The position numbers were made by a program, and so were the translations under genes. Shown one piece after another: positions 1 through 33,272 of a stretch of DNA of 64,000 bases. This DNA is from Clostridia bacterium (lineage in GTDB: Bacteria > Bacillota > Clostridia > JAAYHZ01): assembly GCA_050950825.1 (NCBI GenBank), contig JBMNIH010000004.1, positions 192,001-256,000 on the forward strand, written 5' to 3'. How positions within the stretch are numbered: position 1 is the stretch's first letter; the number at the start of each line of letters is the position of its first letter. The notes below the pieces were generated by a model. It made no database searches. It was not told where the DNA came from and saw only the letters and a program-made list of their open reading frames with translations.

Positions 1-106
1 GTGCAAAGACTTTGGCGGTATTTTTATGCACACCCTTTATTTTGGCTCTTGCCTATGGTATGATAAATTCAGGGTAGCATTTAAAGTGAAAGGATGGATA
101 CAATCA

Positions 107-661
107 ATGCCGAATCAGATAAAAGAAATCGCCGCCAGATTAAGAGAATTAAGAGACATTGCCGGCATATCAATTGAAGAGTTGGCAAAAGAATTTAACG
201 TTCCGGTTGAAACGTATAAAGAATATGAAAGCGGAGAGGTGGATATACCGGTAGGGATACTGTATCGGGCAGCCGGATTATTTAACGTCGAGCTGACGGT
301 TCTGCTTACCGGACAAGATCCTAAGCTGCATACCTATACGTTGGTTCGAAAAGGAAAGGGCGTCAATGTAGAACGCAGGAAAGCCTATAAATACCAAAGC
401 CTTGCGTATAACTTCATCCGTAAAAAAGCCGAACCGTTTTTAGTAACGGTAGAACCCGACCCGGCGAACAAGCCGGTGGAATTTAACAGCCATCCCGGTC
501 AAGAATTTAACTATTTGTTGGAAGGACGCATGATGATCTATCTGGACGGTTATGAGCTGGAATTGAACGAAGGAGATTCCTTGTACTTTGATTCCACGGT
601 ACCTCACGGTATGAAGGCTCTTGACGGCAAACCGGCAAAATTCTTAGCGATCATATTTTAA
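107..661 (+). CDS. XRE-family HTH transcriptional regulator with C-terminal cupin domain
   Basis: N-terminal HTH (IAARLRELRDIAGISIEELA) plus cupin motif HPGQEFNYLLEG...GDSLYFDSTVPHG; ATG at 107 follows an AAAGGA RBS. Confidence 0.9.
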   Translation: MPNQIKEIAARLRELRDIAGISIEELAKEFNVPVETYKEYESGEVDIPVGILYRAAGLFNVELTVLLTGQDPKLHTYTLVRKGKGVNVERRKAYKYQSLAYNFIRKKAEPFLVTVEPDPANKPVEFNSHPGQEFNYLLEGRMMIYLDGYELELNEGDSLYFDSTVPHGMKALDGKPAKFLAIIF

Positions 662-681
662 ATTCAAATAAATGTAAAATA

Positions 682-707
682 AAAGAGGGTTGGTTCCAAC
701 CCTCTTT
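682..707. terminator. Bidirectional intrinsic terminator between the convergent XRE genes
   Basis: AAAGAGGGTTGG-TT-CCAACCCTCTTT inverted repeat with A and T tracts. Confidence 0.8.
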
Positions 708-726
708 CTATATGGATGAATTTGAT

Positions 727-1248
727 TTATTTCAAATAATCGAAGATCTTTCCGTATCCGGATATGAAGTCTAGCATCGATTCTTGGTACGCCGGAAACC
801 AGCGGTCTTTTACGTAATTCTCTTTCTTATCCGCTACCAGCTTATTAAAGGTCCGAACCGTCTTTGTCAATAAATTGATCAAGTTGGAAAAGGCTTTTTC
901 GTCGATACGGCCTTTCTTGTAGTTATCGATACATTCAATCAATGCATCGTTTAACAACATCAGTTTATTCGGATCCGTCATTGCGACCTTGTCGAATTCC
1001 TTCATAAAAGCTTGTTGTTTGCTTGCCGATTCCGAAGCGGATTTATCACGAACGTTTGTCCTTCCTAAAAGGTAGTCTACGGACACGTCAAAGAAATCGG
1101 CGATTTTCAGCAATATCTCAAATGACGGTTGAGATTTGTTTTTTTCGTATTTATTCCAAGCGCCGTCCGTTACACCGATGGCAGCACCGGCTTTCTTCAT
1201 TGTAAGGTTTTTTTCCATTCGCAGCATGTATAATCTTTCACCAAACAT
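727..1248 (-). CDS. XRE-family HTH regulator with uncharacterised helical C-terminal domain
   Basis: MFGERLYMLRMEKNLTMKKAG...YEKNKSQPSFEILLKIADFFDVSVDYLLGR is a classic HTH_3; AAAGGAG RBS precedes ATG at 1248. Confidence 0.9.
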   Translation of the reverse strand: MFGERLYMLRMEKNLTMKKAGAAIGVTDGAWNKYEKNKSQPSFEILLKIADFFDVSVDYLLGRTNVRDKSASESASKQQAFMKEFDKVAMTDPNKLMLLNDALIECIDNYKKGRIDEKAFSNLINLLTKTVRTFNKLVADKKENYVKDRWFPAYQESMLDFISGYGKIFDYLK

Positions 1249-1281
1249 ACAAAAGTCTCCTTTCCAATTTTGACTTGGAAT

Positions 1282-1349
1282 AAAAAAGTCCGGTTGCATC
1301 TTATCACTCAAAAATCTCTTTTGAGTGATATTCAAGGATGCAACCGGAC
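1282..1349 (-). terminator. Riboswitch expression platform: long hairpin plus U-tract upstream of the XRE gene
   Basis: GTCCGGTTGCATC/GATGCAACCGGAC 13-bp stem with inner TATCACTCAAAA/TTTTGAGTGATA stem, followed on the minus strand by TTTTTT. Confidence 0.85.
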
Positions 1350-1420
1350 GATCATAATATCTTTCAATACCTTAGACTCCTGGCTTTGCGTCTCAACCTT
1401 TCGATTGATTTGCCAAATAT
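1338..1420 (-). ncRNA. Cyclic di-GMP-I (GEMM-I) riboswitch aptamer
   Basis: Minus strand reads GGCAAATCAATC-GAAA-GGTTGAGACGCAAAGCCAGGAGTCTAAGGTATT-GAAA-GATATTATGATCGTCCGGTTGC, with the GGCAAA, GNRA, GACGCAAAGC, CTAA and GTTGC consensus blocks. Confidence 0.9.
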
Positions 1421-1461
1421 ACAGTTTTTTAAGCTTTTATTACAATAGCTTTGTTGCTTTT

Positions 1462-1490
1462 AGAATAACAAGCTATTATCCTTTTGTCAA
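1462..1490 (-). promoter_or_regulatory. SigA-type promoter for the riboswitch-XRE transcript
   Basis: Minus strand TTGACA-17 bp-TATTCT. Confidence 0.7.
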
Positions 1491-1815
1491 TCACTTTTAC
1501 AAACCAAACGTCAATTTTTTTTATATGGTATACCGTTGGTTCATAAATATATCGAATAAAATGCTCAATTGCAAAAGTAAAATCTAGTTTGCAGAAGTAA
1601 GTTCTGTAGAAAAGTTAAAAAATACAATGCAGTTATGTTTTTAGTGCTTAAATAGTGGTAAAATTAAGGGGAAGTTAGGTATATAGGCTAAAGTTGGGTA
1701 TAGCAAACATAAGGTAGAATGAAGTCGCAGTTTTTCGCAATACTAAATTCTACCCCTCTAGGATGAGGTGATTAGATGATGTTGTATCTCGGCAAGCATT
1801 CGGTGTTACTGTTTT

Positions 1816-2007
1816 TTAGTAATCAATCGCCGAATCCGTTGGATTGAGAATTGATTGGATTTCGGCTAATTGGTTCTTCAGCAAATCCCGCTCTTCACGG
1901 AGCCGGTAGATGCTTTCCAATAGGTATTCAATGTATTCATCGGCTGAAAGAGGTATTGAGTTACCGTATTCATCAAAGAGAACATCATGATAAATCTTTT
2001 TCATCAT
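1816..2007 (-). CDS. Small accessory coiled-coil protein of IS30 copy 1
   Basis: GAGGTG RBS; overlaps the transposase stop; heptad-like LLESIYRLREERDLLKNQLAEIQSIL; present in both copies. Confidence 0.6.
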   Translation of the reverse strand: MMKKIYHDVLFDEYGNSIPLSADEYIEYLLESIYRLREERDLLKNQLAEIQSILNPTDSAIDY

Positions 2008-3313
2008 CAGACACCTCTTTCGATGACTTAAGCAAAGCCGGAGTGAGCGTAACCTCATCCGCCGGAATTTCCTTAAGACCTAATTTTTGGAGAACCATTT
2101 CTCCATAAAAGAAGCTGAATACAGCAATAGGGGGCTTGTCATTCAGCTTTTTTCTTATCAGTGAATTGATATGATTGGCCAAAAGATCAACAGAGCTTTG
2201 AGATAAACCATCAAAGGATGTTCCTCTAGGTAGAATCATGCGGATGTATTCGTGATTTCGTTCGATTTCCGCTTTTTGATGCGGAGAAGATTTTTCACAG
2301 TAAAATATTCTTGTTCGCAAGTTGCCAAAAGAATCATACTCGATGGCTGTCGGATTGGTGAACTCAGATCCGTTATCACTGAGTATGACCGGAAACAATC
2401 TCATAAAATCCTCTCTGCCGAGCAACCGGTCCAAGTAATTAAAAATATCGATGACCGATTGCGAAGTATTGTGATCTCTCAGGAAAATCAACATCAAGTC
2501 CGACCGAGTAAAGAATATCGTCAATAGAACTTTTCCACCTTTCTTTCCTTCGACCGTGTCCATCTGTACTACCGGAATATCAGGATGTTCTTCCATATAC
2601 TTTTGAAAGTCCTGATAGGTACGTCCGATACGACAACGTTTGTCTACTTTGAAAGTCAATTCGCGGCGTCGGGGTCGATATCTTACCTTTCGAGGCAGAT
2701 CAATATTACGAATGGACAGAACGCCTTGGTCGATCAGTTTGTAAATCGTTCGTTCACTGCACAGGATTTTATTGGCTTGAGATACACAAATATGATGGAT
2801 GGATTGCTTCTTTTTCACCAAAGGGGCGAGAAGTTCATCCATATACGCAAGCTCGTCTTCCGAAAAAGAAATACCCGTTCGGCTGTCGACCAAATTCTGC
2901 CGATAGCTGTCGTTGGCGGGGATAGCACGATAGAAATATTTGGACAATACACATATATCCTTTTGATTGCATCCGTTGCAGACATAAGGCGGCTTGGAAA
3001 GCTTCGGACAATGTTCTTCTTGGAAGTTGGAACATAACCTGTTGCACTTTTTGCAGAGTCTGCAAAATGATTTGCTGCAAGACATGTCGTCGCATAAGCC
3101 AAAGGTAGTGCAAGAGAATCTATGAATGCATCTATTAGGGGTACGTCCGCCGGAACCCGTAAATATCGGAACCCGATTTTTACGTATTTCTTTGGAAATT
3201 GTGGAAGGATCCTTGTCCAGATGGAGGGCTATCTGACGAAAAGAAAGCCCGTTATTCAAACCGGTATGTATGAAATTACGGTCGTCAAGGGTTAAATGTT
3301 TGTTATTTGGCAT
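1985..3313 (-). CDS. IS30-family DDE transposase with Cys-rich insertion
   Basis: HTH (SFRQIALHLDKDPSTISKEIRKN) and DDE motifs QMDTVEG / SDNGSEF / QKAEIERNHE; AAAGGAG RBS before ATG 3313. Confidence 0.93.
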   Translation of the reverse strand: MPNNKHLTLDDRNFIHTGLNNGLSFRQIALHLDKDPSTISKEIRKNRVPIFTGSGGRTPNRCIHRFSCTTFGLCDDMSCSKSFCRLCKKCNRLCSNFQEEHCPKLSKPPYVCNGCNQKDICVLSKYFYRAIPANDSYRQNLVDSRTGISFSEDELAYMDELLAPLVKKKQSIHHICVSQANKILCSERTIYKLIDQGVLSIRNIDLPRKVRYRPRRRELTFKVDKRCRIGRTYQDFQKYMEEHPDIPVVQMDTVEGKKGGKVLLTIFFTRSDLMLIFLRDHNTSQSVIDIFNYLDRLLGREDFMRLFPVILSDNGSEFTNPTAIEYDSFGNLRTRIFYCEKSSPHQKAEIERNHEYIRMILPRGTSFDGLSQSSVDLLANHINSLIRKKLNDKPPIAVFSFFYGEMVLQKLGLKEIPADEVTLTPALLKSSKEVSDDEKDLS

Positions 3314-3647
3314 GACTAGCGCTCCTTTCAAACACCGGCTTGCCGAGAAACAATAACACCACATAAATAAAATTATACTGTTGAATTCACAAGATGTAAG
3401 TACAGAAATGAAGATCTGTGGAATATAAAAAGTGTTTGTCTTATGGAGAATGTCAGTAAAGCTATCCAACCTTATGTCTATCGATAAATCAGGCAATAAA
3501 TCCGAGGACATGATAAAATGATATTTGTAAGGTTAATTTCTACATGTAGATTTGCAGGTTTAAGTTCTATAATTGTGGCACTAAGGGTAGAATTTAATTT
3601 TGCAATTCACATATCGAATAAAATCAAAAAAAATTTAATAAAAACAT

Positions 3648-3700
3648 TTGACTATGAACGATTAGTTATGATAATATTAAAATGAACTAGTAGTTCATAG
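3648..3700 (+). promoter_or_regulatory. SigA-type promoter with two operator-like sites
   Basis: TTGACT at 3648, TATGATAATAT -10 region; perfect palindrome ATGAACTA-G-TAGTTCAT at 3682-3698; related site CTATGAACGATTAGTT at 3652-3667. Confidence 0.7.
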
Positions 3701-3874
3701 AATATTGAGAATCGGGCTTAAGATTTAGGTACTGTTACGGGTCGTCACACCTTAATATAATTGCCTCCTATGTTTATATAAGGTGCAACAGTAAACCAAT
3801 GGAATACTCTTTGATAACCTGTGAAATAACCTGACAACTGTGCCTTGGGACGGGTAAACCCCGGTCCCTTTTTT
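3683..3874 (+). ncRNA. Putative ~190-nt small RNA with an anti-SD loop
   Basis: Promoter and terminator (GGGACGGG..CCCGGTCCCTTTTTT, 3847-3874) enclose no sizeable ORF; long hairpin 3730-3793 with loop TTGCCTCCTATGT. Confidence 0.6.
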
Positions 3875-3943
3875 GTCTATACACCCGGCATGTATATTTG
3901 CTATAATTTTTGGTATCAGCACGTGCAATGGAGGAAAAGGATC

Positions 3944-5701
3944 ATGAACGGAATCAATATGGATTTACCGAGACCGGAATATCCGAGACCGGATTTTGAA
4001 AGAAGCCTGTGGATGAATTTAAACGGAGCTTGGGACTTTTGTTTTGACGACGAAGATCGAGGAGAAAAAGAAGGCTGGTATAAAAAGCCCGTTGTGTTCG
4101 ACAAGAAAATCACGGTGCCTTTTTGCTACCAGAGCGAAATGAGCATGGTTCACGATACGAATATGCACGAGATTATGTGGTACCGCCGTACGATTACCCT
4201 GCCGGAAGCCTTTCGAGGCAAAAGAATTCTTTTGCATTTCGGTGCCGTCGATTACGAAGCGAAGGTTTGGGTGAACGGACAGCTTGTTTGCGTTCATCGG
4301 GGAGGCTATGTTCCCTTTAAGGTTGATATCACCGAGTTTGTAAAGAAAAAAGAAAATATTTTGACGGTGAAGGTTACGGACCGATTTGAGTGCGTACAAC
4401 CGAGAGGAAAACAGTATTGGAAGGAAAAACCGGACCGATGCTGGTATATTCCGACATCCGGGATCTGGCAGACCGTATGGCTGGAAGCGGTAGGAGAGGT
4501 ATTTATCGATCGAGTGAAATTTACACCGGATATTGACCGTAAAGACGTAAAAACGGAAATCTATTTGGATCGTTTCCCCTACGAGGCGGATTTGGAAATC
4601 GAGGTCAGCTATAAAGGAAAGCCTGTCAATCGATCCGTTCATCGACTGAAAGGCAGAATATCCGCCGTCACCCTCGATATACGGGAAGAAGACAATATCG
4701 ATGAAATTCACCATTGGACTCCGGATAGGCCGAACCTTTACGATGTGAATCTGAAATTGTGGAAGGACGGCATACTGTTGGATGAGGTAAAGAGTTATTT
4801 CGGTATGAGGAAAATATCCGTTCAAGGGGATATGATTCTTTTGAACAACCGCGTTTATTACCAAAGGCTGATATTGGACCAAGGCTATTGGAAGGAAAGC
4901 TTGCTAACGCCTCCTAGCGATGAGGCGATTCGAAAGGATATCGAATACACGAAGCGGATGGGCTTTAACGGCGCCAGAAAGCATCAAAAAATCGAAGATC
5001 CTCGGTATTACTACTGGGCGGATAAATTAGGGCTTTTGGTCTGGGGCGAGGTGCCCTCCGCTTACGATTTCAACGACGAAGAAGTGGATAATCTTTTATA
5101 TGAAACAAAAGAATTCATTAAAAGAGACTACAACCATCCTTGTATCGTAACCTGGGTTCCTCTAAACGAATCCTGGGGCGTACGAAACATTTATAGCGAC
5201 CAAAGGCAGCAGGAATTCGCCATAGCTTTGTACTTTACGATTCGTTCGCTGGATCAAACTCGCTTGATTAGCACAAACGACGGATGGGAGCAAATATACG
5301 GCGACATTTGTGCCGTGCACGACTACATGGCATCCGGTGAAGGTTTCCTGGTTAAATACGAGGATCGAGACGCCATCCTGAGCAAATCCGCCGGCAGCCG
5401 AATGATCTACTGCGAAGGAGAGGAGTACGACGGACAACCGGTTCTGATTACGGAATACGGCGGAATCGCCATGGAAACGGAAGAAGAGGGATGGGGATAC
5501 AACGGGAAGGTCAAAGACGAAAAAGAATTCTTAAGACGTTATGAAAGCATCACCAAAGCCATTATGAATACCCCGTATATTCGCGGATATTGCTATACGC
5601 AGCTGACGGACGTTTTCCAGGAAATAAACGGATTGCTTACGATGGACCGAAGATTCAAAGTGAATCCGGAAGAGATAAGAAGGATCAATCAAAACAGGTA
5701 A
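3944..5701 (+). CDS. Glycoside hydrolase family 2
   Basis: PRPEYPRP, LHFGAVDY, GFNGARKHQK, WVPLNESWG and ITEYGG motifs. Confidence 0.9.
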   Translation: MNGINMDLPRPEYPRPDFERSLWMNLNGAWDFCFDDEDRGEKEGWYKKPVVFDKKITVPFCYQSEMSMVHDTNMHEIMWYRRTITLPEAFRGKRILLHFGAVDYEAKVWVNGQLVCVHRGGYVPFKVDITEFVKKKENILTVKVTDRFECVQPRGKQYWKEKPDRCWYIPTSGIWQTVWLEAVGEVFIDRVKFTPDIDRKDVKTEIYLDRFPYEADLEIEVSYKGKPVNRSVHRLKGRISAVTLDIREEDNIDEIHHWTPDRPNLYDVNLKLWKDGILLDEVKSYFGMRKISVQGDMILLNNRVYYQRLILDQGYWKESLLTPPSDEAIRKDIEYTKRMGFNGARKHQKIEDPRYYYWADKLGLLVWGEVPSAYDFNDEEVDNLLYETKEFIKRDYNHPCIVTWVPLNESWGVRNIYSDQRQQEFAIALYFTIRSLDQTRLISTNDGWEQIYGDICAVHDYMASGEGFLVKYEDRDAILSKSAGSRMIYCEGEEYDGQPVLITEYGGIAMETEEEGWGYNGKVKDEKEFLRRYESITKAIMNTPYIRGYCYTQLTDVFQEINGLLTMDRRFKVNPEEIRRINQNR

Positions 5702-5847
5702 AACAAGGGTATTAATGAAAATGTTTTGTCCTTGTAACATAAAATTAACAAGAAAAATCGTAAAACCTCGATATCGTGATATACATTTGTCCGCGTGTGT
5801 GGTATACTGATTTAGAATACAAAATTTTACGCCAAGGAGTTGATAGA

Positions 5848-6492
5848 ATGAAGAGGTTGACGAGTATTGTTTTAGTGATAGCGCTCTTATTGCTATCTAC
5901 AGGAAGTGTACTGGCAGCATCCGTACCCGGCGCGGTTTATACGGATCAAACGGTAGATGAAATTAAAAGCATTTTGCAATCGGCACGCGTTAAGGACGTC
6001 AACTCCGATGACTGGTACGCTCCGGGTATCAGTGCGCTCATTCGTATCGGTCTAATTGCGCCTGACAGCAGCGGAAATATCAATCCGCAAGCTACCAACA
6101 ACGGGTTGGAAGCTGTTTCCATCGTTGCAAAAGCCGTAGGTATTGCAAACAGAAATGACTCGCCCGAGACGGCCTTTCAAAAGGCAAAAGAAGCCGGTAT
6201 TGTTGGCGACGGTATTACGATGCTTACCATAATGAGAAGAATTGACGTCGCTTATATGGTAGCGAAGGCGTTCAACTTGCCCTATATCTCCATTTACAAC
6301 AGGAACCTGTTCCCCTTTGCAGATTTCTTAGCATTTACTCCGGGGGAAAGAGGTATGGTTAAGGCGCTCACCGAAAGAGGAATCTTTACGGGTTATGCCA
6401 TCGGAGGCGGCAAGTATGAATTCCGTCCGAATAACACGATTACAAAGGCGGAGTTTGCAACCGTTGTTGCAAGACTAATGAACCTTATTTGA
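5848..6492 (+). CDS. Secreted S-layer homology (SLH) domain protein
   Basis: Signal peptide; KDVNSDDWY and GIFTGY..FRPNNTITKAEFATVVARL SLH motifs; AAGGAG RBS. Confidence 0.85.
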   Translation: MKRLTSIVLVIALLLLSTGSVLAASVPGAVYTDQTVDEIKSILQSARVKDVNSDDWYAPGISALIRIGLIAPDSSGNINPQATNNGLEAVSIVAKAVGIANRNDSPETAFQKAKEAGIVGDGITMLTIMRRIDVAYMVAKAFNLPYISIYNRNLFPFADFLAFTPGERGMVKALTERGIFTGYAIGGGKYEFRPNNTITKAEFATVVARLMNLI

Positions 6493-22668: not shown

Positions 22669-22989
22669 ACCTATATTGTAGTATTATATGGCTTTTTTTG
22701 CTTTTCCAAAAACATTCTCCTTGCTTTCAAGAAAGGGCTCAATTGCAAAAGTAAAATCTAGTTTGCAGAAGTAAGTTCTGTAGAAAAGTTAAAAAATACA
22801 ATGCAGTTATGTTTTTAGTGCTTAAATAGTGGTAAAATTAAGGGGAAGTTAGGTATATAGGCTAAAGTTGGGTATAGCAAACATAAGGTAGAATGAAGTC
22901 GCAGTTTTTCGCAATACTAAATTCTACCCCTCTAGGATGAGGTGATTAGATGATGTTGTATCTCGGCAAGCATTCGGTGTTACTGTTTT

Positions 22990-23181
22990 TTAGTAATCAA
23001 TCGCCGAATCCGTTGGATTGAGAATTGATTGGATTTCGGCTAATTGGTTCTTCAGCAAATCCCGCTCTTCACGGAGCCGGTAGATGCTTTCCAATAGGTA
23101 TTCAATGTATTCATCGGCTGAAAGAGGTATTGAGTTACCGTATTCATCAAAGAGAACATCATGATAAATCTTTTTCATCAT
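22990..23181 (-). CDS. Small accessory coiled-coil protein of IS30 copy 2
   Basis: Same protein as 1816-2007. Confidence 0.6.
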   Translation of the reverse strand: MMKKIYHDVLFDEYGNSIPLSADEYIEYLLESIYRLREERDLLKNQLAEIQSILNPTDSAIDY

Positions 23182-24487
23182 CAGACACCTCTTTCGATGA
23201 CTTAAGCAAAGCCGGAGTGAGCGTAACCTCATCCGCCGGAATTTCCTTAAGACCTAATTTTTGGAGAACCATTTCTCCATAAAAGAAGCTGAATACAGCA
23301 ATAGGGGGCTTGTCATTCAGCTTTTTTCTTATCAGTGAATTGATATGATTGGCCAAAAGATCAACAGAGCTTTGAGATAAACCATCAAAGGATGTTCCTC
23401 TAGGTAGAATCATGCGGATGTATTCGTGATTTCGTTCGATTTCCGCTTTTTGATGCGGAGAAGATTTTTCACAGTAAAATATTCTTGTTCGCAAGTTGCC
23501 AAAAGAATCATACTCGATGGCTGTCGGATTGGTGAACTCAGATCCGTTATCACTGAGTATGACCGGAAACAATCTCATAAAATCCTCTCTGCCGAGCAAC
23601 CGGTCCAAGTAATTAAAAATATCGATGACCGATTGCGAAGTATTGTGATCTCTCAGGAAAATCAACATCAAGTCCGACCGAGTAAAGAATATCGTCAATA
23701 GAACTTTTCCACCTTTCTTTCCTTCGACCGTGTCCATCTGTACTACCGGAATATCAGGATGTTCTTCCATATACTTTTGAAAGTCCTGATAGGTACGTCC
23801 GATACGACAACGTTTGTCTACTTTGAAAGTCAATTCGCGGCGTCGGGGTCGATATCTTACCTTTCGAGGCAGATCAATATTACGAATGGACAGAACGCCT
23901 TGGTCGATCAGTTTGTAAATCGTTCGTTCACTGCACAGGATTTTATTGGCTTGAGATACACAAATATGATGGATGGATTGCTTCTTTTTCACCAAAGGGG
24001 CGAGAAGTTCATCCATATACGCAAGCTCGTCTTCCGAAAAAGAAATACCCGTTCGGCTGTCGACCAAATTCTGCCGATAGCTGTCGTTGGCGGGGATAGC
24101 ACGATAGAAATATTTGGACAATACACATATATCCTTTTGATTGCATCCGTTGCAGACATAAGGCGGCTTGGAAAGCTTCGGACAATGTTCTTCTTGGAAG
24201 TTGGAACATAACCTGTTGCACTTTTTGCAGAGTCTGCAAAATGATTTGCTGCAAGACATGTCGTCGCATAAGCCAAAGGTAGTGCAAGAGAATCTATGAA
24301 TGCATCTATTAGGGGTACGTCCGCCGGAACCCGTAAATATCGGAACCCGATTTTTACGTATTTCTTTGGAAATTGTGGAAGGATCCTTGTCCAGATGGAG
24401 GGCTATCTGACGAAAAGAAAGCCCGTTATTCAAACCGGTATGTATGAAATTACGGTCGTCAAGGGTTAAATGTTTGTTATTTGGCAT
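23159..24487 (-). CDS. IS30-family transposase
   Basis: Same protein as 1985-3313. Confidence 0.93.
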   Translation of the reverse strand: MPNNKHLTLDDRNFIHTGLNNGLSFRQIALHLDKDPSTISKEIRKNRVPIFTGSGGRTPNRCIHRFSCTTFGLCDDMSCSKSFCRLCKKCNRLCSNFQEEHCPKLSKPPYVCNGCNQKDICVLSKYFYRAIPANDSYRQNLVDSRTGISFSEDELAYMDELLAPLVKKKQSIHHICVSQANKILCSERTIYKLIDQGVLSIRNIDLPRKVRYRPRRRELTFKVDKRCRIGRTYQDFQKYMEEHPDIPVVQMDTVEGKKGGKVLLTIFFTRSDLMLIFLRDHNTSQSVIDIFNYLDRLLGREDFMRLFPVILSDNGSEFTNPTAIEYDSFGNLRTRIFYCEKSSPHQKAEIERNHEYIRMILPRGTSFDGLSQSSVDLLANHINSLIRKKLNDKPPIAVFSFFYGEMVLQKLGLKEIPADEVTLTPALLKSSKEVSDDEKDLS

Positions 24488-24820
24488 GACTAGCGCTCCT
24501 TTCAAACACCGGCTTGCCGAGAAACAATAACACCACATAAATAAAATTATACTGTTGAATTCACAAGATGTAAGTACAGAAATGAAGATCTGTGGAATAT
24601 AAAAAGTGTTTGTCTTATGGAGAATGTCAGTAAAGCTATCCAACCTTATGTCTATCGATAAATCAGGCAATAAATCCGAGGACATGATAAAATGATATTT
24701 GTAAGGTTAATTTCTACATGTAGATTTGCAGGTTTAAGTTCTATAATTGTGGCACTAAGGGTAGAATTTAATTTTGCAATTCACACTTTCAAGAAAGGTA
24801 TATAATTATAGCATTCTTTG

Positions 24821-24988: not shown

Positions 24989-26926
24989 ATGTCTAGGCAC
25001 GTAATACGACTTATTAGTATGGTCGTGCTATTTGGTGTGATGTTTTCTATGATTGCTTGTTCCAGTTCGACGGAGCAGCCGCAAGCGACAACGACAACGA
25101 CTGCAGCGGCTACGACAACAAAAGCCGTTACAACCACGGCGGGCCAAGCGACAACGACAGCGGCTGCGACAACTACCCAAGCCGTAGAAGCCAATCCCTT
25201 TGCCGAATTCTTTGAAATCACGTGGATCGCTACGATCACAACGGATTACCAAGAAGGCGGATTCGATGAAAAGATGTTAGAAGAAAGATATAACATCGAC
25301 TTGAAACCTTGGGCTATCAGTACGTACGATCCGGAAGGAATCGCCATGATGTTGGCGGCAGGTGATATGCCCGATATCAGCCACTTGGACCACTCTCCCT
25401 TAGCGCCCCCCGCGTTGTACGAGCAAGGACTTACTCGTCTGATCAACATCGAAATGTATAAAAAATATTTCCCCTACTATTATGAATTGATGTTGCAGAA
25501 CGAACCGACTTCGATTATTCATAACAACTGCAGAAACGAAGACGGCAGCTTGTCCGACAACTTCTATGGAGTTTCCTATGTTGTAGACAACAAATGGTAT
25601 TATAACGTTCCCTTGGCTCGTTACGACTGGTTGGAAAACATCGGATTCAGCATCGACGAAAGCTTGCTGACCCCGATCCAGTTGACCGACGAAAAACTGG
25701 GTAAATACAGCGGACAAGTGTACATAACCAGTTATATTTGGAGCTTCGAAGATATGAACGAAATCTTCAGAGCTTTCACCGAAGACGACCCGGACGGAAA
25801 CGGTGAAGACGATACCTACGGCGGTGTCATATTTGACCACAGCTTTAAATCTCACTGGACGGATCTTTGGTGGGGACAATTCGGTGTCGTTTCCTCCGAC
25901 GGAAACTTCCTGTATGAAGACCCCATCACGGGCGACATCGTTCCTTGGTACGCTTATGTCGGAACCCGCGATTACATGAAGTGGGTTGTTGACATGAGAG
26001 ACAAAGGATATTTGAGAACCCTGCCGGAAGGATTCCAGAGCTTGGCGCCGCAAGGTTCTTGGTATGACAACCTGTTGGCGAACTGGATGACCGGTAAGAT
26101 CGGATACTTCTTCTGCGACAGACAATACATCTGCAGACCGGACTTCCCCGAATACTCCGACAGACAACCGCCGCAGAGCATCTGGCTCAATGCAGGTGAC
26201 GAAAATGCGACCTTCGTAACATGGCCGGTATTAGGAAACGCTTACGGTTGGGAACCGAACAACAAGTGGGGAACGAGAAGATACAATCTTGACGCTTTCG
26301 GATCGGGTACCTTCAGAACCTGGTTGGTAGGAAAACAAGTTTCCGATGAAAAGCTCGCTCGCGTTTTGACCATGTGGAATGACGCCAACTCTTCTCCTAT
26401 CGACGATCCTTACTGGTCGGTTGTACGTTTCGGTATTGAAGGCGTTCACTACAAGTGGACAGGCGAACCTTGGAACTCCAGCCGAATCACCACCGAAGCG
26501 ACCAAGATTCCTCCGCACTACAGAAGCTACGGCGGATTCATCGGAATATTCAGCTCCGGCGGACCGAACTTAATCGGTAACGAAGCTATGTCTCAATACA
26601 CAAAGATCCTGTACAGCGAAGAATGGTACAAATACTACTGTATCGAACCGATCAAGTACTGGAGCTCCGCATATGTTCCCGACGATATGATGAAGGAATT
26701 CAATGATTACTGGGCTACAATCAGTGCCGATATCAACAATATCATTGCCGACTTCCGCAATCGTTCTTGGAACGGACAGATCGCCAACTACGAAACCGAA
26801 TGGGAACAATACATCAACCGCTTATATGATGCAGGTCTTGACAAGCTTGTTGAAAACTTCTACAACAACGACAAATTTGCATACTACAAGACTCCCGACT
26901 TGGATATCATTTGGCCGACGAAATAA
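24989..26926 (+). CDS. Extracellular solute-binding lipoprotein (carbohydrate ABC type), paralogue 1
   Basis: Lipobox MIAC, Thr/Ala-rich linker, LAAGDMPD, ARYDWLE, FTEDDPDGNGEDDTYG and FGIEGVHY motifs. Confidence 0.85.
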   Translation: MSRHVIRLISMVVLFGVMFSMIACSSSTEQPQATTTTTAAATTTKAVTTTAGQATTTAAATTTQAVEANPFAEFFEITWIATITTDYQEGGFDEKMLEERYNIDLKPWAISTYDPEGIAMMLAAGDMPDISHLDHSPLAPPALYEQGLTRLINIEMYKKYFPYYYELMLQNEPTSIIHNNCRNEDGSLSDNFYGVSYVVDNKWYYNVPLARYDWLENIGFSIDESLLTPIQLTDEKLGKYSGQVYITSYIWSFEDMNEIFRAFTEDDPDGNGEDDTYGGVIFDHSFKSHWTDLWWGQFGVVSSDGNFLYEDPITGDIVPWYAYVGTRDYMKWVVDMRDKGYLRTLPEGFQSLAPQGSWYDNLLANWMTGKIGYFFCDRQYICRPDFPEYSDRQPPQSIWLNAGDENATFVTWPVLGNAYGWEPNNKWGTRRYNLDAFGSGTFRTWLVGKQVSDEKLARVLTMWNDANSSPIDDPYWSVVRFGIEGVHYKWTGEPWNSSRITTEATKIPPHYRSYGGFIGIFSSGGPNLIGNEAMSQYTKILYSEEWYKYYCIEPIKYWSSAYVPDDMMKEFNDYWATISADINNIIADFRNRSWNGQIANYETEWEQYINRLYDAGLDKLVENFYNNDKFAYYKTPDLDIIWPTK

Positions 26927-27022: not shown

Positions 27023-28798
27023 CATAGAGTAAAGTTACTGTAGGGATTGAGGAATAAAATACCAGCTATAATTGAAAAGAAGATGACATCCTGTTAAGAT
27101 ATATTTAATAAACCTAAAACAAATATTCTTAAGAAAGGATGTCATCTATGTACAATAGTATAAACCATTTTATCGAATTTGGGGTAAAAAATATTGAAAA
27201 AAGGGTTAAAGATTTTGTAAGTAACGGTGGAGACTTGGCAGACTTGATCCTGAATTTAAAAGAAGATGTGTTTGAACTTATTAGAAATATCTTACAAGAA
27301 GTAATTGAAGATATGGATGATCTATTGAGAAACAATGAAGAGAGAAAAAAGTACCGGGAAATTATCAGAAAAGACGAAAACAAGATTTTAACGATTTTCG
27401 GAGAGGTTAGATATAGCAGGACATATTTTAAGCTGAAAAATGGAGGTAAACGAGAATACTTGGTCGATAAGATTATAGGAATAGAACCGCATGATAGAGT
27501 AAGTGCAGATGTCGTTATTAATGTAATAGAAGAAGCCGTTGAAAGCAGTTACAGGAAAGCGGGAGAAATGGCCACATACCTTGATGAAATCAGCAAACAA
27601 GCGGTAATGAAGAAAATACATAATCCGGAGATCATCGAGCCCGAAATAAAGGTGGAAAAAAAGAAGAAGTTGAAAACATTGTACGTCGAGGCGGATGAGG
27701 ATTATGTATCTTTACAAACCAAGTGTGTATCAAAAGAAAAGAAAGGCACAAAAAAGAAAGTCACACCGAAACTTGTTTATGTGCATGAGGGAATTGATAC
27801 GGAAAAAAGCAGCAAAAACAGAAATGTATTAAAGAATGTCCGCTATTTCGGAGAAATATGTGAAAACACGGATGATCTTTGGATTAAAGTGGCGGACTAC
27901 ATAGACGAACAGTACGATGTCGAATGCTTGGAAACCATATACTTATCGGGTGACGGAGCTTCATGGATTAAGAATGGTCTGAATTGGCTGCCAAAGAGTA
28001 AGTTTGTGTTGGATAACTTCCATCTAAAAAAATACATTAAACAAGCAACGGCTCATTTGGATGACGGAACGATACGGCAAGAACTGGAGGAAGCGATAAA
28101 CCATGCCGATAAAAACAAAGTGAAGGAGACATTTGAAAAAATAATTGAATTGACAAGCAATGATAGCAAACTGGAAACCATAAAAGGTGCAAAGCGATAT
28201 ATATTAAATAATTGGGACGGGATAAAAATAAAAAAAGACAAGGGGGCTGAAATTGTCGGCTGTAGTGCGGAAGGTCATATAAGTCATGTATATTCCGATC
28301 GTTTGAGTACACGCCCCGGAGGATGGTCTAAAATCGGTGTAGAAAAGATGTCGAAGTTATTGATCTATACAAAGAACGGCGGAAGGGTATATGACTTGGT
28401 TATGGCACAAAAGCGAAGAAAAGCAGCGGTCAAAAAACGAGAAGAACAAGAAATACTGATAAAAGAATTAAGGAGATTATCAAGCGGTTATGAGAATGTA
28501 TGGAACAGTAAACTAACGGTTCTTGCGAAAGGGCATAAAACCGGTTTATACAATGAATTGAAATGGTTAAGAGGCTTGTGTGGATAAGATTGTAGGGAAA
28601 ACCCGACTTCTTACAAAAGGTGATGTTGATGTGATATAATTGGGTAGACAACAACCACGAATACGTGAAGAGTCTGCTCCATCCGGCAGATTATATGAGG
28701 GATTCTTGCTATTAGCAGCATTCCCATAGTAGTGTTGCTCTAACAAAAATTCAGGATGTCATCTATTCATTTTTTCCCTACAGTAAGTTGACACTATC
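27023..28798 (+). mobile_element. ISLre2-family insertion sequence
   Basis: IRs CATAGAGTAAAGTTACTGTAGGGA / TCCCTACAGTAAGTTGACACTATC; 8-bp direct repeat AAACAAAA at 27015-27022 and 28799-28806. Confidence 0.9.
27148..28587 (+). CDS. ISLre2-family (UPF0236) transposase
   Basis: TIFGEVRYSRTYF, YVEADED, GDGASWIK, LDNFHL and GCSAEGHISH motifs. Confidence 0.92.
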   Translation: MYNSINHFIEFGVKNIEKRVKDFVSNGGDLADLILNLKEDVFELIRNILQEVIEDMDDLLRNNEERKKYREIIRKDENKILTIFGEVRYSRTYFKLKNGGKREYLVDKIIGIEPHDRVSADVVINVIEEAVESSYRKAGEMATYLDEISKQAVMKKIHNPEIIEPEIKVEKKKKLKTLYVEADEDYVSLQTKCVSKEKKGTKKKVTPKLVYVHEGIDTEKSSKNRNVLKNVRYFGEICENTDDLWIKVADYIDEQYDVECLETIYLSGDGASWIKNGLNWLPKSKFVLDNFHLKKYIKQATAHLDDGTIRQELEEAINHADKNKVKETFEKIIELTSNDSKLETIKGAKRYILNNWDGIKIKKDKGAEIVGCSAEGHISHVYSDRLSTRPGGWSKIGVEKMSKLLIYTKNGGRVYDLVMAQKRRKAAVKKREEQEILIKELRRLSSGYENVWNSKLTVLAKGHKTGLYNELKWLRGLCG

Positions 28799-29031: not shown

Positions 29032-30969
29032 ATGTCGAAGAACATAATACGTCTGCTGAGCGTGTTCGTATTAATTGGTGTGATGTTCTCGATGATTGCA
29101 TGCTCCAGCTCAACCGAAACCCCGGATGTGACGACCACAACCGCAGCTGCAACCACGACAACAAAAGCCGCTGTTACGACTACGGCAGGGCAAACGACGA
29201 CAGCTGCTGCGACAACTACCCAAGCTGTAGAAACAAATCCCTTTGCCGAATTCTTTGAAATCACGTGGATCGCTACGATTACAACGGATTACGTCGAAGG
29301 TGGATTTGACGAAAAGATGTTAGAAGAAAGATATAACATCGACTTGCAACCTTGGGCTATCAGTACGTACGATCCGGAAGGAATCGCCATGATGTTGGCG
29401 GCAGGTGATATGCCTGATATCAGCCACTTGGACCACTCTCCCTTAGCGCCCCCCGCGTTGTACGAACAAGGTCTTACTCGTCTGGTTAACATCGAAATGT
29501 ACAAGAAATATTTCCCCTACTATTATGAATTGATGTTGCAGAACGAACCGACTTCGATTATTCATAACAACTGCAGAAACGAAGACGGCAGCTTGTCCGA
29601 TAACTTCTTTGGAGTCTCCTATGTTGTAGACAACAAATGGTATTATAACGTTCCCTTGGCTCGTTACGACTGGTTGGAAAACATCGGATTCAGCATCGAC
29701 GAAAGCTTGCTGACCCCGATTCAGTTGACCGACGAAAAACTGGGTAAATACAGCGGACAAGTGTACATAACCAGTTATATTTGGAGCTTCGAAGATATGA
29801 ACGAAATCTTCAGAGCTTTCACCGAAGACGACCCGGACGGAAACGGTGAAGACGATACCTACGGCGGTGTCATATTTGACCACAGCTTCCGTTCTCACTG
29901 GACGGATCTTTGGTGGGGACAATTCGGTGTCGTTTCCTCCGACGGAAACTTCCTGTATGAAGACTCCGTCACGGGTGACATCGTTCCTTGGTACGCTTTT
30001 GTAGGATACAGAGACTACATGAAGTGGGTTGTTGACATGAGAGACAAAGGATATCTGAGAACCCTGCCGGAAGGATTCCAGAGCTTGGCGCCGCAAGGTT
30101 CTTGGTATGACAACCTGTTGGCGAACTGGATGACCGGTAAGATCGGATACTTCTTCTGCGACAGACAATACATCTGCAGACCGGACTTCCCCGAATACTC
30201 CGACAGACAACCGCCGCAGAGCATCTGGCTCAATGCAGGCGACGAATCGGCGACCTTCGTAACATGGCCGGTATTAGGAAACGCTTACGGTTGGGAACCG
30301 AACAACAAGTGGGGAACGAGAAGATACAATATGGACGCTTTCGGTTCGGGTACCTTCAGAACCTGGTTGGTAGGAAAACAAGTTTCCGATGAAAAGCTCG
30401 CTCGCGTTTTGACCATGTGGAACGACGCGAACTCTTCTCCTATCGACGATCCTTACTGGTCGGTTGTACGTTTCGGTATTGAAGGCGTTCACTACAAGTG
30501 GACAGGCGAACCTTGGAACTCCAGCCGAATCACCACCGAAGCGACCAAGATTCCTCCGCACTACAGAAGCTACGGCGGATTCATCGGAATATTCAGCTCC
30601 GGCGGACCGAACTTAATCGGTAACGAAGCTATGTCTCAATACACAAAGATCCTGTACAGCGAAGAATGGTACAAATACTACTGTATCGAACCGATCAAGT
30701 ACTGGAGCTCCGCATATGTTCCCGACGATATGATGAAGGAATTCAATGATTACTGGGCTACAATCAGTGCCGATATCAACAATATCATTGCCGACTTCCG
30801 CAATCGTTCTTGGAACGGACAGATCGCCAACTACGAAACCGAATGGGAACAATACATCAACCGCTTGTATGATGCAGGTCTTGACAAGCTTGTTTCGGAC
30901 TTCTACAACAACGACAAATTTGCATACTACAAGACTCCCGATTTGAACATCATTTGGCCGACAAATTAA
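29032..30969 (+). CDS. Extracellular solute-binding lipoprotein, paralogue 2
   Basis: Same length (645 aa) as and near-identical to 24989-26926. Confidence 0.85.
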   Translation: MSKNIIRLLSVFVLIGVMFSMIACSSSTETPDVTTTTAAATTTTKAAVTTTAGQTTTAAATTTQAVETNPFAEFFEITWIATITTDYVEGGFDEKMLEERYNIDLQPWAISTYDPEGIAMMLAAGDMPDISHLDHSPLAPPALYEQGLTRLVNIEMYKKYFPYYYELMLQNEPTSIIHNNCRNEDGSLSDNFFGVSYVVDNKWYYNVPLARYDWLENIGFSIDESLLTPIQLTDEKLGKYSGQVYITSYIWSFEDMNEIFRAFTEDDPDGNGEDDTYGGVIFDHSFRSHWTDLWWGQFGVVSSDGNFLYEDSVTGDIVPWYAFVGYRDYMKWVVDMRDKGYLRTLPEGFQSLAPQGSWYDNLLANWMTGKIGYFFCDRQYICRPDFPEYSDRQPPQSIWLNAGDESATFVTWPVLGNAYGWEPNNKWGTRRYNMDAFGSGTFRTWLVGKQVSDEKLARVLTMWNDANSSPIDDPYWSVVRFGIEGVHYKWTGEPWNSSRITTEATKIPPHYRSYGGFIGIFSSGGPNLIGNEAMSQYTKILYSEEWYKYYCIEPIKYWSSAYVPDDMMKEFNDYWATISADINNIIADFRNRSWNGQIANYETEWEQYINRLYDAGLDKLVSDFYNNDKFAYYKTPDLNIIWPTN

Positions 30970-31127: not shown

Positions 31128-31352
31128 ATGCCTGACTATTCTTTGATTTGCACGGAGTGTGAAGAAAAATTTTCGTTTTTCGGAACTTGGAAAGAACGCC
31201 AAAAGGTCGTTTGCCCGAAATGCGGGTCTTCAAAAATCGAGCAAGTGTTTTCCGCGGAAGGCAGGGTAGGGCTACGACAAATTCATAAAACGAAAGAACA
31301 AAGCTGTCCCATGTCCCAAGGCGGGGGATGTGCCGGATGTAAATTTCGATAA
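31128..31352 (+). CDS. FmdB-family zinc-ribbon protein
   Basis: MPDYSLICTEC..VCPKCGS..CAGC; AAAGGAGG RBS. Confidence 0.85.
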   Translation: MPDYSLICTECEEKFSFFGTWKERQKVVCPKCGSSKIEQVFSAEGRVGLRQIHKTKEQSCPMSQGGGCAGCKFR

Positions 31353-31451
31353 AGACAAAGCAAGAGCATGGACCGATTTTCCTTCTCTTGAATTTTTCGC
31401 TTCCTTCTTATATACTTTACATTTAGTATTGTAAAGATAGGAGGCAACGGT

Positions 31452-33272
31452 ATGGAAAAAACAGAAGAAGTTCATGCTTTAAAGGCAATTGTAAAAGACA
31501 ATATATTATTAACCGACGGTGCCATGGGAACCTATTATGCCGTGCAGCATAACGGGTATCCCATGTCGGAATTTGAAAATATCGAGCATCCGGAAATAAT
31601 AAGAGGGATTCATCTTGCTTACGTGGAAGCAGGAGCAAAATTATTACGTACCAACACATTTGCCGCGAATTGCAAAACGTTAAATACCCAAGCCGACGAG
31701 CTTATAAAAATCATCAAAGCCGGCTACCGAATCGCCCGAGAAGCGGCGGCGGATCGAGACGTTTTTGTTGCCGCGGACATCGGCCCTATCCCCGAGAACA
31801 CGGATCCTGCACCGGGGCCGGGGAATGAAAAAAACAGATTCGACGAATATATCGAAATAATCGACGCCTTTTTGGAAGAAGGAGCGCGGATTTTCTGGTT
31901 TGAAACCTTTGGAAAACCCGACGATATTGAATTTTGTGCCGAGTACATCAAAAAGGCTTGTCCCGTCTCATTTATAAACGCCCAATTTGCATTTGACAGT
32001 ACGGGATACACTCGAGAAGGAGTTTCTCTTTCCACTATCCGTACCAAAATGGCTGAAAACCCCCGTATTGATGCGTGGGGCTTCAATTGTGCCATGGGAC
32101 CCGTACATATGCTTTCTTTAATCGAAGGATTGCCCGTAGAAAAAAACTTTATCTTATCGGCACTTCCCAACACCGGCTATCCCGTGATCAAAAACCAAAG
32201 AACGGTGTATCCTTTGAATCCGGAATACTTTGCCGACCGGGTGATGAAGATCGTGGAAGCCGGAGCGAAGATAGTAGGCGGCTGCTGCGGCACCACTCCG
32301 GAACATATAAAGGCCATATCCAAGCGTTTGTACGAAGCGAAATACAAGGTCAGTACAGCGGTAAAAGAAAAAAAAGAAGTCGTGGATACCGTTCCTTATT
32401 CGGCGAATTCTTTTAAAGAAAAGCTGGATAGAGGAGAAAAAGTGATCATGGTGGAATTGGACCCGCCTTTTACATCGGACACCGCTTCCATGCTGCAGTC
32501 GGCGGAATACATCAAGGATTTGGCCGATGCCATTACGGTAGCCGATTCTCCTTTAGGAAAGGTCCGAGCGGATTCTTTGATGGTGGCCTCTCGTATCAAA
32601 AGAAGAACGGGTATCGACGTTGTGCCTCATTTGTGCTGCCGGGACAAAAATATTGTAGGATTAAAATCCGGCATTTTGGGAGCCCACGGGGAAGGCATTC
32701 GGAATATATTGGTCATAACCGGAGACCCTTTGCCGGGAAATGAAAGAGCCGGTGCGAAAAGCGTTTTCAATTTGAACTCAAAGGGTCTGATTTCGTTAAT
32801 CAATGAAATGAATAACGAGCTTTTTGCAAATTCCGAAATCTATATCGGTGCCGCCATCAATCCTAACGTACCGAACTTTGATGCCCAGCTTCGAAAAACC
32901 GAGGAAAAAACGAAGGCCGGGGCACGCTTCTTTTTGTCCCAGCCGGTATATTCCGATGAAGCGGCGGAAAATTTGCTCCGCGCCAAAAAAGAATTGAAAG
33001 TGAAAATCATCGCCGGCATATTGCCCATTGTAAGCTACAACAATGCCGTGTTTTTAAACAACGAAGTTCCGGGAATCGTGGTACCGGAAGAATATATTCG
33101 TCGGTTCTACCAAGGCATGGACCGGGATGAAGCCTATAAGGTCGGCGTGGAGATTGCTTTGGAGTGTATCCGAAGAACCGAAGGACTGGACGGCGTTTAC
33201 TTTATGCCGCCCTTTAACCGTGTTACCATGATAGCCGAAATCATTCGAAAAATGAAAGCATCGAAACGTTAA
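31452..33272 (+). CDS. yitJ: Bifunctional homocysteine S-methyltransferase / methylenetetrahydrofolate reductase
   Basis: DGAMGT, GFNC and GGCCGTTPEHI, then VELDPP, HLCCRDKN and FLSQP (MTHFR). Confidence 0.9.
   Translation: MEKTEEVHALKAIVKDNILLTDGAMGTYYAVQHNGYPMSEFENIEHPEIIRGIHLAYVEAGAKLLRTNTFAANCKTLNTQADELIKIIKAGYRIAREAAADRDVFVAADIGPIPENTDPAPGPGNEKNRFDEYIEIIDAFLEEGARIFWFETFGKPDDIEFCAEYIKKACPVSFINAQFAFDSTGYTREGVSLSTIRTKMAENPRIDAWGFNCAMGPVHMLSLIEGLPVEKNFILSALPNTGYPVIKNQRTVYPLNPEYFADRVMKIVEAGAKIVGGCCGTTPEHIKAISKRLYEAKYKVSTAVKEKKEVVDTVPYSANSFKEKLDRGEKVIMVELDPPFTSDTASMLQSAEYIKDLADAITVADSPLGKVRADSLMVASRIKRRTGIDVVPHLCCRDKNIVGLKSGILGAHGEGIRNILVITGDPLPGNERAGAKSVFNLNSKGLISLINEMNNELFANSEIYIGAAINPNVPNFDAQLRKTEEKTKAGARFFLSQPVYSDEAAENLLRAKKELKVKIIAGILPIVSYNNAVFLNNEVPGIVVPEEYIRRFYQGMDRDEAYKVGVEIALECIRRTEGLDGVYFMPPFNRVTMIAEIIRKMKASKR

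Follow-up and report, generated by a model that had tools for sequence, protein, structure and literature searches.

A cyclic di-GMP riboswitch ahead of an XRE-type regulator gene, and its possible connection with flagellar promoters, in a Clostridia bacterium

The window analysed here is a stretch of 64,000 nucleotides (contig C4, positions 192001-256000) from the 3.55-Mb genome of a Clostridia bacterium, assembled in 11 contigs with an estimated completeness of 97%. Near its left end lie a riboswitch for cyclic di-GMP (c-di-GMP), the gene for an XRE-family regulator that follows it, and a divergent promoter which by alignment is a paralog of the flagellar operon promoter of the same genome. 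This arrangement suggests that c-di-GMP turns on a repressor of flagellar-type promoters, a model that is held with moderate confidence. The locus was compared with a sister species (G001, the one further species of the genus among the genomes compared, in a 310-contig assembly) and with a genome from the one other genus of the family among them (G002). For transcription, four sequencing runs were mapped onto positions 1-6000 as contigs: the metatranscriptomes X15, X16 and X19 (RNA) and the run X9 (DNA). The metatranscriptome contigs carry no information on strand, true ends or abundance. The leftward unit is made up as follows.

1462-1490, minus strand: promoter of the riboswitch-XRE unit, TTGACA-17-TATTCT with TG, from a promoter scan; -35 and -10 conserved in the sister species
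1336-1424, minus strand: c-di-GMP-I riboswitch aptamer, Rfam RF01051, 72.2 bits against a gathering score of 35, full model (1-87 of 87)
1349-1337 and 1300-1288 (arms), 1287-1279 (U-tract), minus strand: expression platform, an intrinsic terminator whose 5' arm overlaps aptamer stem P3
727-1248, minus strand: XRE-family regulator gene, 173 amino acids, with an N-terminal helix-turn-helix (HTH) and a lineage-specific helical C-terminal part
681-708, minus strand: terminator-like hairpin after the XRE gene, a 12-pair stem with a T run behind it; position 712 is the end of the RNA contigs that cover the XRE unit

The preliminary description of this DNA, made from its letters alone, had placed a promoter, a c-di-GMP-I aptamer and a terminator ahead of the leftward XRE gene, and all three are present. 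The cmscan alignment of the aptamer has a GAAA tetraloop (GNRA type) on the first hairpin, both helices paired and zero non-canonical pairs flagged; the same two hairpins are given by ViennaRNA. In an Rfam search of all contigs this was the sole class I c-di-GMP match of the genome, and a class II c-di-GMP riboswitch, looked for across the genome, gave no match. The promoter scan overall was not above chance (14 sites vs 9.4 +/- 2.9 in shuffles). The leader and the XRE gene are covered end to end by an RNA contig, 712-1438, in both X15 and X16.

The 3' strand of stem P3 (1348-1342) is included in the 5' arm of the terminator, and therefore the ligand-bound aptamer and the terminator should be mutually exclusive. 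Taken alone, the terminator hairpin has an energy of -35.2 kcal/mol and the aptamer one of -17.3 kcal/mol. The layout suggests an ON switch, in which P3, stabilised by the ligand, would keep the arm from the terminator; downstream of the terminator come a Shine-Dalgarno sequence and then the ATG, at 1248, of the XRE open reading frame (ORF). The 201-nt leader folds well beyond its shuffles (z -5.35, with 0/200 as good), and the terminator/P3 layout is common to all 3 riboswitch-XRE leaders that were aligned, this one and two from the sister species. In these the stretch ATGATCGTCCGGTTGCA and its returning arm are conserved and the interior of the hairpin is variable. The earlier proposal that c-di-GMP switches the XRE gene on is consistent with this anatomy and with its retention in both sister-species leaders; the ON direction is the one to which the structure points.

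Residues 6-60 of the XRE protein match Pfam HTH_3 (PF01381; E 5.4e-12, 46 bits vs a cut-off of 23). The AlphaFold2 (AF2) model has a pLDDT of about 90 over residues 1-60 and less confidence in the four C-terminal helices. In Foldseek, P22 c2, 434 repressor and SinR match the HTH only (about 60 residues, root mean square deviation 0.6-1.3 Å), and the model together with these matches identifies the HTH as a five-helix Cro/C1 fold. The protein is set apart from SinR, P22 c2 and 434 repressor by its C-terminal 110 residues, for which the Foldseek search with the AF2 model returned no confident structural match. Cro/C1 HTH proteins such as these three typically bind palindromic operators as dimers. 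Overall identity is just 43-44% to the paralogs within the genome and 66% to the sister-species ortholog; the recognition-helix residues A30-K36 (AWNKYEK) are invariant in all 5 family members compared. No ortholog was found in G002, where the best match is 38% over the HTH only, and no XRE gene adjoins flgB there. The XRE gene is convergent with a gene for an HTH_3 and cupin regulator (107-661), the two having the bidirectional terminator at 681-708 in common, and this pairing is kept in the sister species.

On the other side of the riboswitch unit, the candidate sites of XRE action and the element that parts the two promoters are these.

3648-3677, plus strand: divergent sigma-A-type promoter, TTGACT (3648), 16-18 nt, GATAAT/TAATAT with upstream TG
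3654-3659, plus strand: half-site ATGAAC abutting the -35, part of the divergent promoter
3682-3698, unstranded: palindrome ATGAAC-TAGTA-GTTCAT, candidate XRE operator, at about +1 to +17
1539-1544, unstranded: lone GTTCAT half-site between both promoters, also in the sister species; a putative site
1563-3610 (2,048 bp), minus strand: IS30-family insertion sequence (IS), with transposase 1985-3313 and small ORF 1816-2004

The rightward promoter overlapped by palindromic sites that had been described previously is indeed there, with inverted repeats at 3652-3667 and 3685-3700 overlapping it. Exact ATGAAC-N5-GTTCAT occurs in 2 copies in 3.55 Mb, vs 0.32 expected, and both copies adjoin a gene of the same XRE family; among the 13 genomic sites with at most one mismatch to the palindrome, only these two lie outside long open frames. 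Over 69 nt the divergent promoter and its palindrome share 80% identity with the sister species, where the arms of the palindrome are kept and the spacer is changed to CATGA, which is the pattern expected of a protein-binding site. From these observations we infer that the XRE family binds ATGAAC-N5-GTTCAT, and the position of the sites suggests that XRE bound at +1 and at the -35 would repress the divergent promoter. The earlier claim that the XRE acts on the palindrome in its divergent promoter is given comparative support by the retention in the sister species and by the place of the two exact copies, the binding itself being putative.

On contig C3 the second exact palindrome stands 318 bp ahead of an XRE paralog whose recognition helix is identical to that of the riboswitch-controlled XRE. 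Read on the opposite strand, this site has the form TTGACATGAACC...GTGATAAT...ATGAAC-CAACT-GTTCAT, which aligns with the window promoter along its whole length. The C3 promoter (stretch L017, within 5205-5292) points into cheY (response-regulator)-flgB-flgC-fliE-fliF-fliG-fliH-fliI, and on its other side are cheB, cheR, a gene for a methyl-accepting chemotaxis protein, cheW, cheA, a third XRE paralog and a GGDEF gene. In stretch L017 (12397-14606 and 16569-17726) the third paralog has an HD-GYP-type (HD_5) gene on either side and the GGDEF gene nearby; these genes of c-di-GMP turnover share one cluster with the che and flagellar genes. This alignment makes the divergent promoter of the window a paralog of the one on the flagellar operon, where the riboswitch-controlled XRE may also be able to act.

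In the sister species the order is a cupin-HTH gene, XRE, riboswitch (71.4 bits), promoter and divergent promoter, followed by genes for a glycoside hydrolase family 2 (GH2) protein and for SLH and Wzy_C-like proteins. Between the two species, 271 nt of the riboswitch-terminator-promoter side align at 70% identity, and the promoter, the palindrome and the riboswitch-XRE pair are all kept, so the arrangement is conserved in this one relative. A second riboswitch-XRE unit in the sister species (riboswitch 64 bits, XRE 51% identity) adjoins fliJ, fliK, flgD, flgE and a cheA fragment, and near it are also genes for an AraC-type protein and a methyltransferase. The divergent promoter of the sister species drives a 336-residue fliI-like ORF, 43% identical to residues 9-344 of the FliI of the window genome, in which the Walker A sequence GSGVGKST is replaced by NSVENEDR. 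It is also truncated, ending at about residue 344 of 444 (profile position 194/213) with the C-terminal ~100 residues gone, and it is the best FliI-family match of the sister species at 257.9-259 bits vs a cut-off of 629.8. Judged from these changes the fliI copy is catalytically dead.

The IS30 copy was set aside in the preliminary description, which read the remainder as a compact divergent unit. This is justified because the IS is absent from the orthologous site of the sister species, which has the same unit without it. The transposase matches NF033563 (86.3 bits vs a cut-off of 80) and HTH_38 (E 7.3e-18), the inverted ends of 20 nt (1567-1586 / 3588-3607) are 90% identical, and a 14-bp direct target duplication ATATCGAATAAAAT at 1549-1562 / 3611-3624 flanks the element. 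There are 3 copies in the genome at 99.6-100% identity. The second, at 22737-24785 of the window, is 100% identical and is flanked by a 13-bp duplication CTTTCAAGAAAGG, and long target duplications are therefore normal for this IS; the third is on contig C7, where the adjoining target sequence resembles 1549-1562, which suggests a target-site preference. The IS30 copy is a recent insertion that parts the two promoters and leaves both intact. No contig joins 1562 to 3625 in the 4 runs, so that an IS-free allele was not seen, although this does not show such an allele to be absent. Depth in the DNA run stays at 15 over the IS interior, where depth in the RNA runs drops to 0 in parts, which argues against mere DNA carry-over in the RNA runs. 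The highest RNA contig depth of the mapped stretch is also inside the IS, at 1687-2086 (184 in X15, 35 in X16 and 27 in X19); the transposase body has near-zero RNA depth, and the 62-residue ORF at 1816-2004 on the minus strand has no Pfam family.

To the right of the divergent promoter the features are these.

3682-3875, plus strand: ORF-less transcript, about 175-195 nt, with a predicted start near 3682 and its terminator end at 3875
3748-3785, plus strand: hairpin with a 13-15-nt loop holding the anti-Shine-Dalgarno TTGCCTCCTAT (3761-3771), from the fold
3762-3875, plus strand: part of the RNA (~115 nt, GCCTCCT to terminator) homologous to the 3' untranslated tail of the dead fliI of the sister species, from local alignment
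3847-3875, plus strand: intrinsic terminator GGGACGGG/CCCGGTCCC with T6, from the ViennaRNA fold; the X16 contig ends at 3867
3878-3907, plus strand: the GH2 gene's own promoter, TATACA-18-TATAAT with TG, 72% over 39 nt to the sister species; an X16 contig starts at 3926
3944-5701, plus strand: glycoside hydrolase family 2 gene, Pfam Glyco_hydro_2_N, Glyco_hydro_2 and Glyco_hydro_2_C

The rightward transcript of about 190 nt without an ORF, as previously described, agrees with the RNA data: X16 has a 175-nt contig at 3693-3867, and no ORF of at least 40 amino acids is present on the plus strand within 3686-3844. By eye, the only ATG frames in the RNA are of 3 and 11 codons, without a Shine-Dalgarno sequence. 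A simple terminator scanner did not list the hairpin at 3847-3875, which ViennaRNA folds and in which 2 of 7 pairs are compensatory relative to the sister species.

The alignment of 3762-3875 with the tail that follows the dead fliI of the sister species scores 50 vs 23.3 +/- 4.3 in shuffles, none of 300 reaching 50, and the motif GCCTCCT (GCCUCCU in the RNA) is common to both. The first ~60 nt of the RNA were rejected as a homolog of either the 5' untranslated region or the fliI-like ORF of the sister species, as these alignments were equalled by 89/300 and 112/300 shuffles respectively. FliI coding remnants were sought in the RNA and in the sister-species tail, and the RNA gave nothing significant (the lowest E values were 0.073, from the wrong strand, and 2.6). 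Because the RNA stands in the slot of the dead fliI, and because only its last ~115 nt are conserved, as the tail of that gene, it is read mainly as a relic, probably a leftover of a duplicated flagellar-operon fragment, although it may have some other role. Deletion of the fliI copy in the window genome, rather than its gain in the sister species, is favoured by the comparison since the promoter itself appears to be a paralog of the flagellar one. Both the promoter paralogy and the dead-fliI slot had been overlooked in the preliminary description.

Together these features fit the following scheme. Transcription from 1490-1462 on the minus strand would give a leader bearing the one c-di-GMP riboswitch found in the genome. 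In the absence of ligand the strong terminator (1349-1279) would form, whereas with c-di-GMP P3 would hold its 5' arm and allow read-through into the XRE gene. An XRE dimer on ATGAAC-N5-GTTCAT (+1 to +17), with the half-site at the -35, would then block RNA polymerase. High c-di-GMP would most likely lower flagellar gene transcription through XRE at the C3 promoter; this follows from the paralogy of the promoters, from the only other exact palindrome being on C3 and from the identical recognition helix of the neighbouring XRE there. The short RNA from the divergent promoter would be mainly a remnant of the duplicated flagellar-operon fragment, with some read-through into GH2. Nearly all the sequence features of the preliminary description are present, and its interpretation is supported in part.

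That c-di-GMP turns on an XRE repressor of flagellar-type promoters has about an even chance of being right as a whole; confidence is kept at this level because the evidence consists of two species and contig-level RNA data. Several points weigh against it. Every regulatory arrow in the scheme is read from sequence or structure. The arrangement is known from two species alone, so the argument from conservation has little power, and no further species with riboswitch, XRE and divergent promoter was found in either the genome-collection or the metagenome search. A search of the sister species gave no further copy of the exact palindrome. Nor was flgB found there with the FlgB of the window genome as query (a weak result given the fragmented assembly), nor an intact fliI in the FliI-family search, and as two riboswitch-XRE units are nevertheless kept, flagellar control is not their sole role in that species. 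The short transcript is supported rather than mapped, since the contigs give neither strand nor true ends nor abundance. Finally, GCCUCCU in both species and the placement of the anti-Shine-Dalgarno in a loop hint at a function of the RNA outside its reading as a relic. Apart from these points, the sister species tentatively seems, in its fragmented assembly, to be losing its flagellum.

The last hint could be taken further, in that the RNA may be a functional regulator, acting in trans or derived from a 3' tail, with an anti-Shine-Dalgarno seed for targets other than the gene yitJ (see below), and would be a second XRE-controlled output. Both species conserve GCCUCCU and the ~110 nt after it, although what lies upstream differs; the motif lies in a hairpin loop, and the X16 contig at 3693-3867 is discrete. 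Against this, a consensus fold of both 3' tails gives the terminator only, so that no other shared structure emerges, and the fold of the RNA is modest (z -2.2 to -2.4 in the window and -0.86 for the sister-species counterpart). The RNA region belongs to no Rfam family, a scan up to E 10 over 600-4100 returning only noise (Ysr197, 12.4 bits); the region 3625-3943 is unique in its own genome, and blastn matched it neither in 40 further genomes from the family and class nor in a plasmid collection; and target prediction equals its controls. Such a regulator is possible, if unlikely. The fuller combination, in which a single riboswitch acts through XRE on the flgB-type promoter and also on a gene-stripped duplicate emitting a conserved anti-Shine-Dalgarno RNA as a second, post-transcriptional output, is rather unlikely.

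Alternatively, the RNA could be a cis-acting leader, with read-through into the GH2, SLH-protein and O-antigen-ligase-like genes allowing c-di-GMP to tune genes of the cell envelope. Contigs of two RNA runs bridge 3868-3925 into GH2, one of 2,792 nt in X15 running from 3699 through the terminator past 6000 and one in X19 covering 3728-3969, and the order of promoter, tail, terminator, GH2, SLH and Wzy_C-like genes is the same in the sister species. However, a contig over two genes is no proof of one transcript, GH2 has its own conserved promoter, the X16 contigs stop at 3867 and restart separately at 3926, and no alternative antiterminator structure was found, which makes a leader role doubtful. 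One X16 RNA contig also skips 472 nt within GH2 (3990-4463, with GG..GG ends and 20 nt on the shorter side), and this skip is probably an assembly artefact or comes from another organism.

A further alternative is that the XRE is a purely local repressor of mobile-element type and that the C3 palindrome is used only by the neighbouring paralog, without cross-talk from the riboswitch-controlled copy. Very few full-length relatives came to light: a collection of 5.8 billion proteins gave 63 matches among 113 candidates, with only 5 clusters besides the protein's own covering at least 82% of the query. Searches led by the XRE found 1 relative among 121 stretches of the genome collection and 7 among 596 metagenome stretches. 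Of those 7, this organism accounts for 1 and apparently the sister species for 2, and 3 stand beside transposase, integrase or recombinase genes. The distant metagenomic relatives adjoin TnsA-like, integrase and recombinase genes, with no riboswitch and no palindrome there, and for this reason the family may derive from mobile-element repressors; its best NCBIfam match is a phage RstR-type repressor (under that model's cut-off), and the limited identity of the paralogs also fits a local role. Yet the recognition helix is identical throughout the family, the palindrome arms are identical at both sites and the two promoters can be aligned along their whole length, so that separate, purely local action seems improbable.

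The cascade of the preliminary description, by which the RNA loop would block translation of yitJ and XRE repression at high c-di-GMP would free methionine and methyl-cycle genes, is very improbable, its pairing being at the level of chance. The gene yitJ (31452-33272, with homocysteine methyltransferase and methylenetetrahydrofolate reductase domains) is followed by metH. The loop at 3761-3771 is perfectly complementary over 11 nt to ATAGGAGGCAA (31437-31447) at the ribosome-binding site of yitJ, by reading extendable to 17/18 with one mismatch, and the RNA has a predicted promoter and terminator of its own and is supported by RNA contigs, some of which read through the terminator. The 11-mer has 4 copies in the genome, of which that at yitJ is the only ribosome-binding site, and by duplex energy (-24.5 kcal/mol) yitJ ranks 2 of 7,159 candidate start regions; dnaK comes first at -25.7. 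However, among flank-shuffled CCUCC controls 15/22 reach -24.5 or better and 5/22 reach -25.7, and among all N3-GGAGG-N3 words 26% are present at one or more candidate start sites of the genome, the figure for AT-rich words being 38%, so that an arbitrary N3-CCUCC-N3 word would find a perfect partner as often. An anti-Shine-Dalgarno loop matching one nearby gene is thus the expectation from chance in about a third of cases. Within the window the 11-mer at up to one mismatch was found 2 times, which is not above shuffles (mean 0.96, with 25/100 having at least 2). In the sister species, the one relative compared, the yitJ ortholog is 71% identical, and GGAGG is absent from its start region AGAAGATGGGAAGCAATGACATG, which also fails to match that species' own element GCCUCCUUU. 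The claimed complementarity to the yitJ ribosome-binding site therefore exists but carries no weight, and the step from RNA to methionine genes is unsupported. An Rfam scan found no S-adenosylmethionine riboswitch ahead of yitJ or metH at the gathering threshold. A small ORF with CxxC...CPxC motifs (31129-31352, zinc-ribbon-like) lies just upstream of yitJ, and has the same position in the sister species.

Control of motility by c-di-GMP in Gram-positive bacteria is known mainly from riboswitches placed directly on flagellar operons and from PilZ-type proteins. In C. difficile, as described in PMC6366702, Cd1 (Cdi-1-3) is a class I OFF switch in the flgB 5' untranslated region by which c-di-GMP lowers expression of the early flagellar operon. 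The proposal made here resembles it in having a clostridial organism, a class I riboswitch and a flagellar operon lowered by c-di-GMP, but here the flagellar operon has no riboswitch and would be reached indirectly, from an apparent ON switch elsewhere, through a repressor. The V. cholerae Vc2 class I riboswitch precedes tfoY (VC1722), a regulator gene affecting motility (PMC12564702 and PMC6366702). There, too, a class I riboswitch sits in the leader of a regulator gene, and an RNA switch carries the effect of the nucleotide to a protein regulator. PMC6366702 states that neither V. cholerae class I riboswitch acts via transcription termination, whereas here a terminator competes with the aptamer; in addition, the regulator is of XRE-type HTH rather than TfoX-like, has a candidate operator and belongs to a Gram-positive clostridium. 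Bc2 of B. thuringiensis (cap gene) is a class I ON switch working by read-through, as described in PMC12564702 and PMC6366702, and differs in controlling an adhesin gene and not a transcription factor.

For the protein, the closest comparison is RstA of C. difficile, an HTH repressor that autoregulates via an inverted repeat overlapping its promoter and also represses flgB by binding its promoter, which has imperfect inverted repeats across the -35 (PMC6414698). Both are HTH proteins with inverted repeats at their own and at flgB promoters, those here being candidate sites. RstA, however, is large, belongs to the RRNPP type, carries TPR and quorum-sensing domains and has no riboswitch input; the XRE here has 173 residues and a different helical tail, and has no detectable relation to RstA beyond the HTH.

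A literature search, in which most subscription journals were not covered, yielded no description of an XRE-type regulator that follows a c-di-GMP riboswitch and is tied to a flagellar promoter. The combination of a genome's single riboswitch feeding an XRE-type repressor, with an operator that marks both a flagellar promoter and a gene-less duplicate of it, appears to be new. If the scheme is true, a riboswitch feeding a dedicated repressor would add an amplifying, protein-mediated layer to the control of motility by c-di-GMP, and this deep-branching, uncultured-type Clostridia lineage of biogas reactors would gain a simple regulon consisting of an RNA switch, a protein and two operators. The locus may also be a record of change in a circuit, in which duplication of a flagellar promoter with its regulator was followed by decay of the cargo gene, and an IS later split the control region; two states of decay would be seen in the dead fliI of the sister species and the about 130 nt left in the window genome.

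The more distant genome, G002, has a single c-di-GMP-I riboswitch (82.2 bits; contig C88, stretch L031, 1501-1587 on the minus strand) ahead of an ORF at 308-1072 on the minus strand, whose product is read from its sequence as MerR-like; riboswitch control of transcription factors may thus recur in this lineage. Elsewhere in the window, two ORFs of 645 amino acids each (24989-26926 and 29032-30969) flank a gene of the UPF0236 family (27139-28587), which is transposase-like. The second of these ORFs has no Pfam family in the scan, and the pair looks like a recent duplication around a mobile gene.

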